Assembly: GCA_964255285.1 (NCBI GenBank)
Contig: CAXUUL010000008.1
Span: 1-64,000 of the forward strand
DNA from: Ionaspis alba
Taxonomy: Eukaryota
Direction: 5' to 3'
Length of the DNA: 64,000 bases
Both the position numbers and the translations under genes were made by a program. Shown here one piece after another: positions 55,216 through 56,823 of this stretch. The notes beneath the pieces were generated by a model. That model saw only the letters and a list, made by a program, of their open reading frames with translations. It was not told the DNA's origin and ran no database searches. The number at the start of each line of letters is the position of its first letter. The stretch's first letter is position 1.

Positions 55216-56823
55216 ATGTCTGAAGCCCCTCCTCAGCTTGGAGACATTCCCCAATATTCCGAGATGAATATCCCGACCTTGTCGACCAGCACAGGCAGCA
55301 ACCAGGCTGCTGCTACATCAACTTCGAATGGTAATTCATCAGTACAGTACACGAAGAATGCCATTTACGGCAGTAAGGTGAGCTTCTGAGATTTCCCATA
55401 TCGGTCGAACGGTGCTGACCGGATCGTCCATCAGTCTTCTAGGCAGCTCGCGTGACCCAAGTTGATAATCTGATTTCTGTGCTCTAGATGCTCAATCGGC
55501 TGCAAATACCATCAGCAACCATCCAGCGACACAGAACGTCAAGGATACAGTCACCAACGGTCAGGTGTGTCTACTAGACGGAGCCTAGCTTCTGAAGCAT
55601 CTACGCTGACTTGTCTCTCTCTAGTTTTCCTCCAACAAGTATCCTTTGTTGTCCATGACCTGATGAGCAGTAGGACCTGTTGCGGAGACAGTCAAGGATC
55701 AGTCCGCAAAGACAACATCAGAATTCAACAAGCTTGCAGACTCACGCACCACTCCTGGCAGTACCGCCGCTACTGGCCAAAACTTGACTCGTATGATACA
55801 TTACTCTCCTAAGTGATTAGTACTGAACGACTTGAAGATTACCATTCATTCTTCTACAATCTTCTCAGTGTAAGGTGGTCTTGACGCAAAATTCGCAGCG
55901 CATGCTGATCGAAACAGTGGCAGCATCCCCGTGCAACCGCACTTTCCTTCTTAACAACCGTTCTATTCATCTTCGCTGCCCGTTATCTGCCTGCACTTCG
56001 CTGGTCGTTCAAGATTTTGTCATATGCACTTGGAGGTCGGTTACTGAAACCCATAGCTCCTCCTATGATTCTAATCGATGAGACAGTGACGGCTACCGCA
56101 GAGATAGCCGGAAAACTGGTACTCAATCAAGGGCTCGCGTCTTCCTTCCGACCCAAGAAATACTATACTATACCCAGAGAGTCGCTTGAAGCTTCTCTGG
56201 AAGATGTTGAGCAGCTCATCAACTTCTTTGTCATTGAATTCCAACGTGTTCTTTTCGCAGAGAACGTCTTCCATACACTAGCCGTAATTTATCCCTCCAT
56301 CACAGTCACCATTGATTCTTTGTAAGCAGCTAATACGTTACAGGCTTTTGCATCAGCTATGGTGTCTTACTGGCTCATCAAGTTCCTGCCACTTTGGGGT
56401 CTCTCGCTCATCGCCGTCTCAATGATATATCTTACACCCCTCATCTACATCAATAACAAGCAAATGATCGATGAACAGCTCAACAACGCCTCCAATGTTG
56501 TCAATTCCCAGGCTGCTCAAGTCAAGGATCTCGCCGGTCACCACGCCGGTCGTGCTTCTGAAACAGTCAAGGCATATGCGGGTGACTACACCGCCAAGGC
56601 GCAGGAATACATCGGAAGTGCTAGAGGGCGTTCTACCTCTCCCGAGGTATCCAGCAAGTCTACAGCTCAAAACCCGATGAAATCTGAGCCCGGTGCACCC
56701 CCGTCGTACAGTTCTTCTGACTTCCCACATGCTCCCAAGCAGGAGCCCACTGCCGGCGTAACATCCCACCAAGAGCAGTACGAGAAGTCGCAATTTGGCG
56801 GCCAAGCTGAGCCTGCGACCTAG
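55216..56823 (+). CDS. rtnA: Reticulon-like protein, 7 exons; first two intervening sequences are complex (stwintrons)
   Basis: Spliced translation ...HPATQNVKDTVTNGPVAETVKDQSAKT...ATGQNLTHYHSFFYNLLSWQHPRAT...RPKKYYTIPRESLE...INFFVIEFQRVLFAEN...YWLIKFLPLWGL..., with two long hydrophobic hairpins. Confidence 0.92.
55373..55487 (+). other. [D5,6] stwintron 1 (internal intron 55378-55434)
   Basis: GTAAG|GTGAGC..GCTGAC..CAG|T.. reconstitutes GTAAGT. Second branch TCTGAT and TAG acceptor at 55487. Confidence 0.8.
55560..55673 (+). other. [D5,6] stwintron 2 (internal intron 55565-55624)
   Basis: GTCAG|GTGTGT..GCTGAC..TAG|T.. reconstitutes GTCAGT. Second branch CCTGAT and CAGTAG acceptor at 55673. 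Confidence 0.8.

Follow-up and report, generated by a model that had tools for sequence, protein, structure and literature searches.

Why a fungal gene should keep, over long evolution, an intron nested inside the splice donor of another intron is the question raised by the first intervening sequence of a reticulon gene in the window, the whole 64-kb stretch of DNA analysed here. Elements of this kind, in which an internal intron sits between nt 5 and 6 of the outer donor, are called [D5,6] stwintrons. The original prediction had pointed to a donor-disrupted stwintron in Aspergillus reticulon-like genes, which is correct, but the known distribution is wider, since the [D5,6] stwintron of rtnA was reported in almost all sequenced Pezizomycotina, with 754 genes (Kavalecz et al. 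2019, PMC6616335). Splicing intermediates were verified in A. nidulans, A. niger, B. cinerea, T. reesei, N. crassa and H. solani, and in Table S1 of the same paper 12 Lecanoromycetes have a first stwintron of 110-115 nt, four of them also a second stwintron, a feature that is also remarked on for many Lecanoromycetes (PMC6616335). As Table S1 already contains Lecanoromycetes copies, the stwintron described here is an orthologous copy of the published element; taken alone, it extends a list of about 750 genomes by one and is of little consequence. The stwintron itself has been known since 2019, and the unreported part, with regard to the available parts of the main text and supplement (PMC6616335), in which the word was not found, is an invariant 11-mer, GCTCGCGTGAC, at positions 55446..55456 of the plus strand. 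It occupies nt 17-27 of the rebuilt outer intron and was absent from the original prediction.

Stwintron 1 spans 55373..55487 on the plus strand (115 nt, phase 1). It had been proposed that this length holds two complete sets of splice signals, and all the coordinates and signals of that proposal were reproduced. The outer donor is split, its first five bases GTAAG lying at 55373..55377 and its sixth base T at 55435. Between them, as predicted, is the internal intron (55378..55434, plus strand, 57 nt) with the donor GTGAGC, the branch motif GCTGAC (55414-55419) and the acceptor CAG (55432-55434). Its excision would leave GTAAGT and an outer intron of 58 nt, the rest of which (55435..55487, plus strand) contains the branch motif TCTGAT (55469-55474), a weaker GTTGAT (55461-55466) and the acceptor TAG (55485-55487). 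Both nested introns have a donor, a branch motif and an acceptor, and their 57 and 58 nt exceed the published minimum of 42 nt. A search of both strands of the 64-kb window with the [D5,6] motif of PMC6616335 gave a single match, with the boundaries of stwintron 1; dinucleotide shuffles (n=100) gave a mean of 0.13 matches, at least one being present in 10/100. The relaxed form of the motif was unselective, with 5 real matches against 2.3 expected in the window. Recursive (abutting) splicing was rejected, as the inner CAG is followed by TCTT and there is no fresh GT donor directly after the acceptor. Extra acceptors were also seen in the window at 55440-55446, 8 and 12 nt beyond the inner CAG, and possible use of these alternative inner acceptors (TAG 55442, CAG 55446) would rebuild GTAAG/G or GTAAG/C, the slash marking here and below the point of joining.

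The gene carrying this element was modelled with seven exons from the ATG at 55216 to the stop at 56823, giving 390 aa with 0 internal stops. Exon 1 (55216..55372, plus strand, 157 nt) ends in phase 1 and aligns with Lecanoromycetes RtnA N-termini, exon 2 (55488..55559, plus strand, 72 nt) is in frame and can be skipped without frameshift, and exons 3-7 (55674-55790, 55838-55869, 55918-56035, 56087-56283 and 56344-56823, plus strand), separated by four ordinary introns, encode the Reticulon domain. Intervening sequences 1-3 of the model are all phase 1. The Reticulon match (PF02453) of exons 5-7, on 55918-56283, scored 46.0 bits (cut-off 31.8), and the last exon alone 28.9. Stwintron 1 interrupts the coding sequence of this PF02453 gene at intron position 1, and every testable sequence feature of the defining paper was found there, which upholds the earlier assignment to the reticulon gene. 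Among 104 homologues, the best named ones come from lichen-forming Lecanoromycetes, with 71-74% identity over the 390-aa model; in a tree of 49 rows the window sequence fell into no supported group, the nearest rows being Schaereria and Pleopsidium. The junction YG/NAQSA aligned without gaps to Lasallia P0009, Varicellaria P0008 and the short-contig proteins P0007, P0013, P0016, P0047 and P0048, which are probably transcript-derived. These sequence comparisons identify the gene as the orthologue of rtnA in a Lecanoromycetes-like lichen fungus. Intron 3 of the model (55791-55837) was observed to have an AAG acceptor and ACTGAA in place of a CTRAY branch motif. In another locus (L060:1-240), a continuous core reading frame seemingly starts inside the stwintron region, with an ATG just before the outer acceptor; this may possibly be an internal start or a partly spliced RNA, and the start of protein model P0011 resembles it.

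Exon 2 is followed by a second [D5,6] stwintron (55560..55673, plus strand), with the split donor GTCAG/T, an inner intron of 60 nt (55565-55624) and an outer intron of 54 nt. It is recognized by the relaxed motif and does not contain the 11-mer. Among lichen-type loci, L005, L037, L018, L019 and L049 retain the second stwintron, L056 has a plain intron instead, and it is missing from L003, L015, L030 and L065; stwintron 1 is kept in all these relatives.

The conservation of stwintron 1 was followed in a metagenome scan from which the best 80 of 300 loci were taken. Within these 80, an unspliced first intervening sequence is carried by 36 loci, which were chosen by a GTNAG/GT start, so that the count is circular for the 5' head and not for the following T. 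In 32/36 of them the base that follows the first inner branch point and acceptor is T, and in 4/36 it is G or A. When lineage representatives were considered, the arrangement CTRAY..HAG/T with both introns at least 42 nt long was present in 12/13, and it arose in 1.2-3.6% of shuffled interiors for each (2000 trials each). Most of the other 44 among the best 80 of 300 loci have no intron at this position, and their sequence runs on across the junction. In a distant fungus, L062:98-152 keeps a 55-nt GTAAG/T outer intron without the inner intron and without one downstream intron; the inner intron that it is missing measures 181-205 nt in L072, L073, L076 and L077, and the missing downstream intron is present in L073 and L076. 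This sequence looks like the predicted splicing intermediate, in a distant fungus, and could also be a genomic copy that lost two introns. Two loci (L005:1871-1982 and L007:2634-2745) have G in place of T after the inner AAG, which gives GTAAG/G, or GTAAG/A if the CAG 6 nt further on is used; unlike them, their close relatives L037, L038, L040 and L044 have the T.

In all likelihood the element is thus the local orthologue of the ancient [D5,6] rtnA stwintron, and we infer that in this fungus it would be removed in two steps. The spliceosome would pair GTGAGC, a consensus donor, with the closest strong branch point and the CAG, as expected under intron definition. The 57-nt inner intron would be excised and GTAAG joined to T, forming the consensus donor GTAAGT, from which an ordinary second reaction would excise the 58-nt outer intron and join 55372 to 55488. 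Among 12 splice routes tried in sequence from the donors 55373 and 55378, the frame was kept in two, namely removal of the whole element (390 aa) and skipping of exon 2 (366 aa); ten routes gave products of 54-191 aa. Splicing to 55487 from GTAATT, a donor further upstream at 55331, is also in frame (376 aa) but would delete conserved residues; because homologues retain these residues, 55372 to 55488 is the right boundary. The phase-1 boundary of the original prediction was therefore the right one, but not the only one to keep the frame, as had been held, given the 55331 and exon-2 skipping routes. Splicing from GTGAGC straight to 55487 does cause the frameshift that had been foreseen (115 aa if final), though it rebuilds a new donor, GTAAG/A. 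Stopping after the first step, or using GTAAGG with the inner acceptor, leads to predicted truncated products of 54-68 aa, so that the rate of the second step would set the amount of full-length mRNA.

Two other uses of the same signals have to be weighed. The 115 nt could be a one-step intron spliced from GTAAGG (55373) directly to TAG 55487, the inner signals being vestigial or serving a minor route. Its size is normal for an intron, its product would be identical to that of two steps, and GTAAGG, which is mismatched to the consensus at +6, also serves intron 4 of this gene as its modelled donor (55870), so that the unspliced 5' end should be usable as a donor. It would, however, bypass the nearer and stronger GCTGAC/CAG, contrary to intron definition (PMC6616335), and it does not account for an inner branch point, acceptor and following T that are fixed in place in 12/13 lineages with interiors decayed to shuffle level. 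Together with the intermediates demonstrated in six species (PMC6616335) and the intermediate-like contig L062, this makes one-step removal very improbable. A less remote, still unlikely, reading takes the skipping of exon 2, known from N. crassa, as the main role of the stwintron, GTGAGC being spliced to TAG 55487 and the rebuilt GTAAG/A then to a downstream acceptor. The route is present in the sequence, keeps the frame (366 aa) and has been demonstrated in A. niger and N. crassa (PMC6616335), but exon 2 is included in 5/5 aligned short-contig lichen-type proteins (P0007, P0013, P0016, P0047 and P0048) and the second intervening sequence is here itself a stwintron. Two-step removal of the whole stwintron remains the preferred account, and the 11-mer lies in the part of it that would be exposed only after the first splice.

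Among the 36 unspliced loci of the best 80 of 300, GCTCGCGTGAC is identical in 25/25 lichen-type loci and present in 0/11 others. As the 25 loci are redundant, they were reduced to 8 representatives, to which the window was added, with Physciaceae-like and Lecanorales-like branches. The 11-mer is the only word of at least 9 letters common to these nine representatives over about 3.6 kb, all exons included; no other part of the locus, coding 9-mers included, is as well conserved in the sampled lichen fungi. Its first letter is nt 16 of the rebuilt outer intron in 8/9 representatives and nt 17 in the window. Outside the word, both introns are close to shuffled sequence in identity (0.55 and 0.58 vs 0.52 and 0.54), and exon 2 reaches 0.70. 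The outer intron of the representatives has a weak branch motif (TTRAC) in 7/9 and a weak donor (GTCAG/T or GTTAG/T) in 7/9; unlike most of them, the window has a consensus outer donor. In 8/9 representatives an AG stands just 5' of the C of the 11-mer, and its use would rebuild GTNAG/C. Traces of the word were also sought in mis-annotated public proteins, where, judging from the protein sequences, read-through residues match it in Alectoria (ARVT) and in Schaereria, two Xylographa and Agyrium (SRD). The Mycoblastus protein model reads SSCD, which implies, from the protein only, a C-to-T change in the CGCG core, and the Sclerophora read-through protein gives no trace of the 11-mer residues. 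A looser AAGCT/AAGTT word was seen by eye near the place of the 11-mer in the outer intron of stwintron 1 of L012, L034, L045 and L068. The 11-mer was not seen by eye in the printed intermediates, some of them partial, of A. nidulans, A. niger, H. solani, T. reesei, B. cinerea and N. crassa (PMC6616335), and a full-text search of the non-subscription literature for the motif gave nothing relevant among the matches listed. The 11-mer is almost certainly under purifying selection and very probably acts as a functional cis-element.

What it might do is less clear. The best single guess, tentative and a little short of an even chance, is an RNA element that would be bound single-stranded and would tune the second step of a deliberately weak outer intron, a reading drawn from its fixed position, its unstructured context and the conserved weak outer signals. 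Evidence against an RNA reading exists. The 11-mer is near-palindromic, it fits the StuA/MCB consensus on both strands, and its single further exact 13-mer match was located upstream of a CorA gene, in antisense orientation. These same observations favour a DNA-level transcription-factor site, bound by an APSES/MBF-type or bHLH-type dimer and acting as a first-intron enhancer whose placement in the stwintron would be incidental, which is a serious contender at somewhat less than even odds. The fit on both strands is to (A/T)CGCG(T/A)N(A/C) (PMC3596290), but such StRE matches are common in the window (33 single and 7 two-sided), and the 7 two-sided matches make this fit weak evidence. The word also agrees with the S. 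pombe Sre1 motif at 9/10 positions (PMC4223079), and the antisense copy, about 400 nt upstream of the CorA gene (L083), has the flanks GA..CTA as in the relatives. A further point for a DNA site is that the 11-mer is somewhat under-represented genome-wide, with 6 occurrences vs 17 for the control at up to one mismatch, and 55 vs 75 for the 9-mer. Against it stand a position locked to the splice junction, the C-to-T change in the CGCG core implied, from protein only, by the Mycoblastus SSCD, and promoters that are unalignable, with no upstream 7- or 8-mer common to the nine representatives. Moreover, this copy of the gene has no in-frame Met before residue ~237, and an internal promoter could therefore not yield a short isoform here. 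A sterol response element of SREBP (ATCANNCCA/ATCANNTGA) or the Sre1 consensus was rejected, as there is one mismatch to the Sre1 motif on either strand and no ATCA half-site (PMC6329520, PMC4223079).

It is rather improbable that the 11-mer is targeted by a trans-acting small RNA, such as an orphan C/D snoRNA, or belongs to an RNA structure. A run of eleven unchanged letters is what a base-pairing target typically shows, and the C-to-T variant inferred in Mycoblastus would retain a G-U pair. However, the pre-mRNA offers no conserved complementary partner and no consensus structure, and four loci (L082-L085) gave no Rfam match at E up to 1. In the 18.3-Mb assembly, which may be incomplete, an antisense-plus-D-box pattern occurred 2 times vs 3 for the control, and no RTGATGA C box was found with it. 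Intramolecular pairing into a hairpin was likewise rejected, as in addition to the missing partner and structure the window copy is less folded than 200/200 shuffles.

The word also occurs elsewhere in the genome. In the 18.3-Mb assembly the 11-mer has 4 copies vs 7 for the control and is not enriched genome-wide. One copy, on the sense strand, lies in intron 4 of the YOP1/DP1 gene (L084:1491-1545, G000:C73), at nt 11-21 of this 55-nt intron; the gene, modelled at 173 aa, was identified through PF03134 and named homologues. The same model was seen to have a 9-nt micro-exon (WLT) at L084:1338-1346. The copy about 400 nt upstream of the CorA-family gene (L083:1436-1530, G000:C43) is antisense, is the only other exact 13-mer copy with flanks matching the consensus of the relatives, and sits in a hairpin (z about -2.4 to -2.5, depending on the strand). 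The remaining genomic copy overlaps a long minus-strand open frame in antisense orientation. ER tubules owe their shape to two protein families, the reticulons and Yop1/DP1. The chance that one of three random copies falls in YOP1 was estimated at about 2.5e-4, and at about 1e-2 with some 50 genes taken as equally apt, the case having been chosen after the fact. In 10 YOP1 intron 4 read-through proteins from non-self fungi, 6 of which are closest to Lecanoromycetes by their C-terminus, ARVT or SRD was found in 0/10; P0225, which is identical to the YOP1 reading of this genome, was excluded from these cases. The 11-mer was not found at up to one mismatch in SEY1, LNP1 and POM33 stretches, those of SEY1 and LNP1 reaching contig ends. 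A general intronic element was rejected, since TCGCGTGA has 26 donor-proximal matches (control 51) and only YOP1 is a clear short intron. A role as a stop codon was rejected as well: the TGA of the 11-mer is in frame in the retained rtnA and YOP1 forms of the window genome and not in the relatives, where the rtnA motif starts one base earlier and the TGA is thus out of frame.

The YOP1 copy points at joint control of ER-shaping genes, from one genome, after the fact and not seen in relatives, and a search for literature on shared RTN1/YOP1 control gave nothing relevant among the matches listed. A speculative and, on balance, improbable extension would be that the rtnA stwintron is a regulated splicing switch in lichen-forming Lecanoromycetes, in which a factor recognizing the 11-mer controls the second step and, through the same site in YOP1 intron 4, co-sets both ER-tubule-shaping families here. 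If true, it would give a function for stwintron persistence as well as splicing-level control of fungal ER shape, neither of which was found in the literature searched. In any case, the 11-mer offers a single short sequence to mutate and, with it, a direct test of why the stwintron was kept over long evolution.

Some comparisons with known systems can be drawn. In budding yeast, Mer1-type intronic splicing enhancers are short conserved intronic words near the weak 5' splice site of a few genes; the 11-mer is alike in being a short word near a weak donor, but its sequence and lineage differ and the likeness is an analogy only. The closest system is rtnA itself. A. nidulans AN5404 and the Pezizomycotina rtnA genes share with the present one the gene, the first intervening sequence, phase 1, the GTAAG/T split and seven exons. 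In the available parts of PMC6616335, no lichen fungus is among the experimentally tested systems. The 'dual intervening sequence' of Onygenales rtnA has the same stwintron at its core (PMC6616335); an arrangement of that type was rejected here, as exon 2 is 72 nt, coding, in frame and encodes a conserved peptide, and no second-order intron is needed. The rtnA of Helminthosporium solani likewise has two consecutive [D5,6] stwintrons around exon 2 (PMC6616335), but this species belongs to another class, the Dothideomycetes, and in the present gene the second outer donor is GTCAG/T and the 11-mer is confined to the first stwintron. The Lecanoromycetes of Table S1 come nearest, the 115 nt of stwintron 1 lying within their 110-115 nt (PMC6616335), and subtraction of the Table S1 coordinates gives Lasallia and Umbilicaria an exon 2 of 72 nt which, with their second stwintron, is the arrangement found here (PMC6616335).
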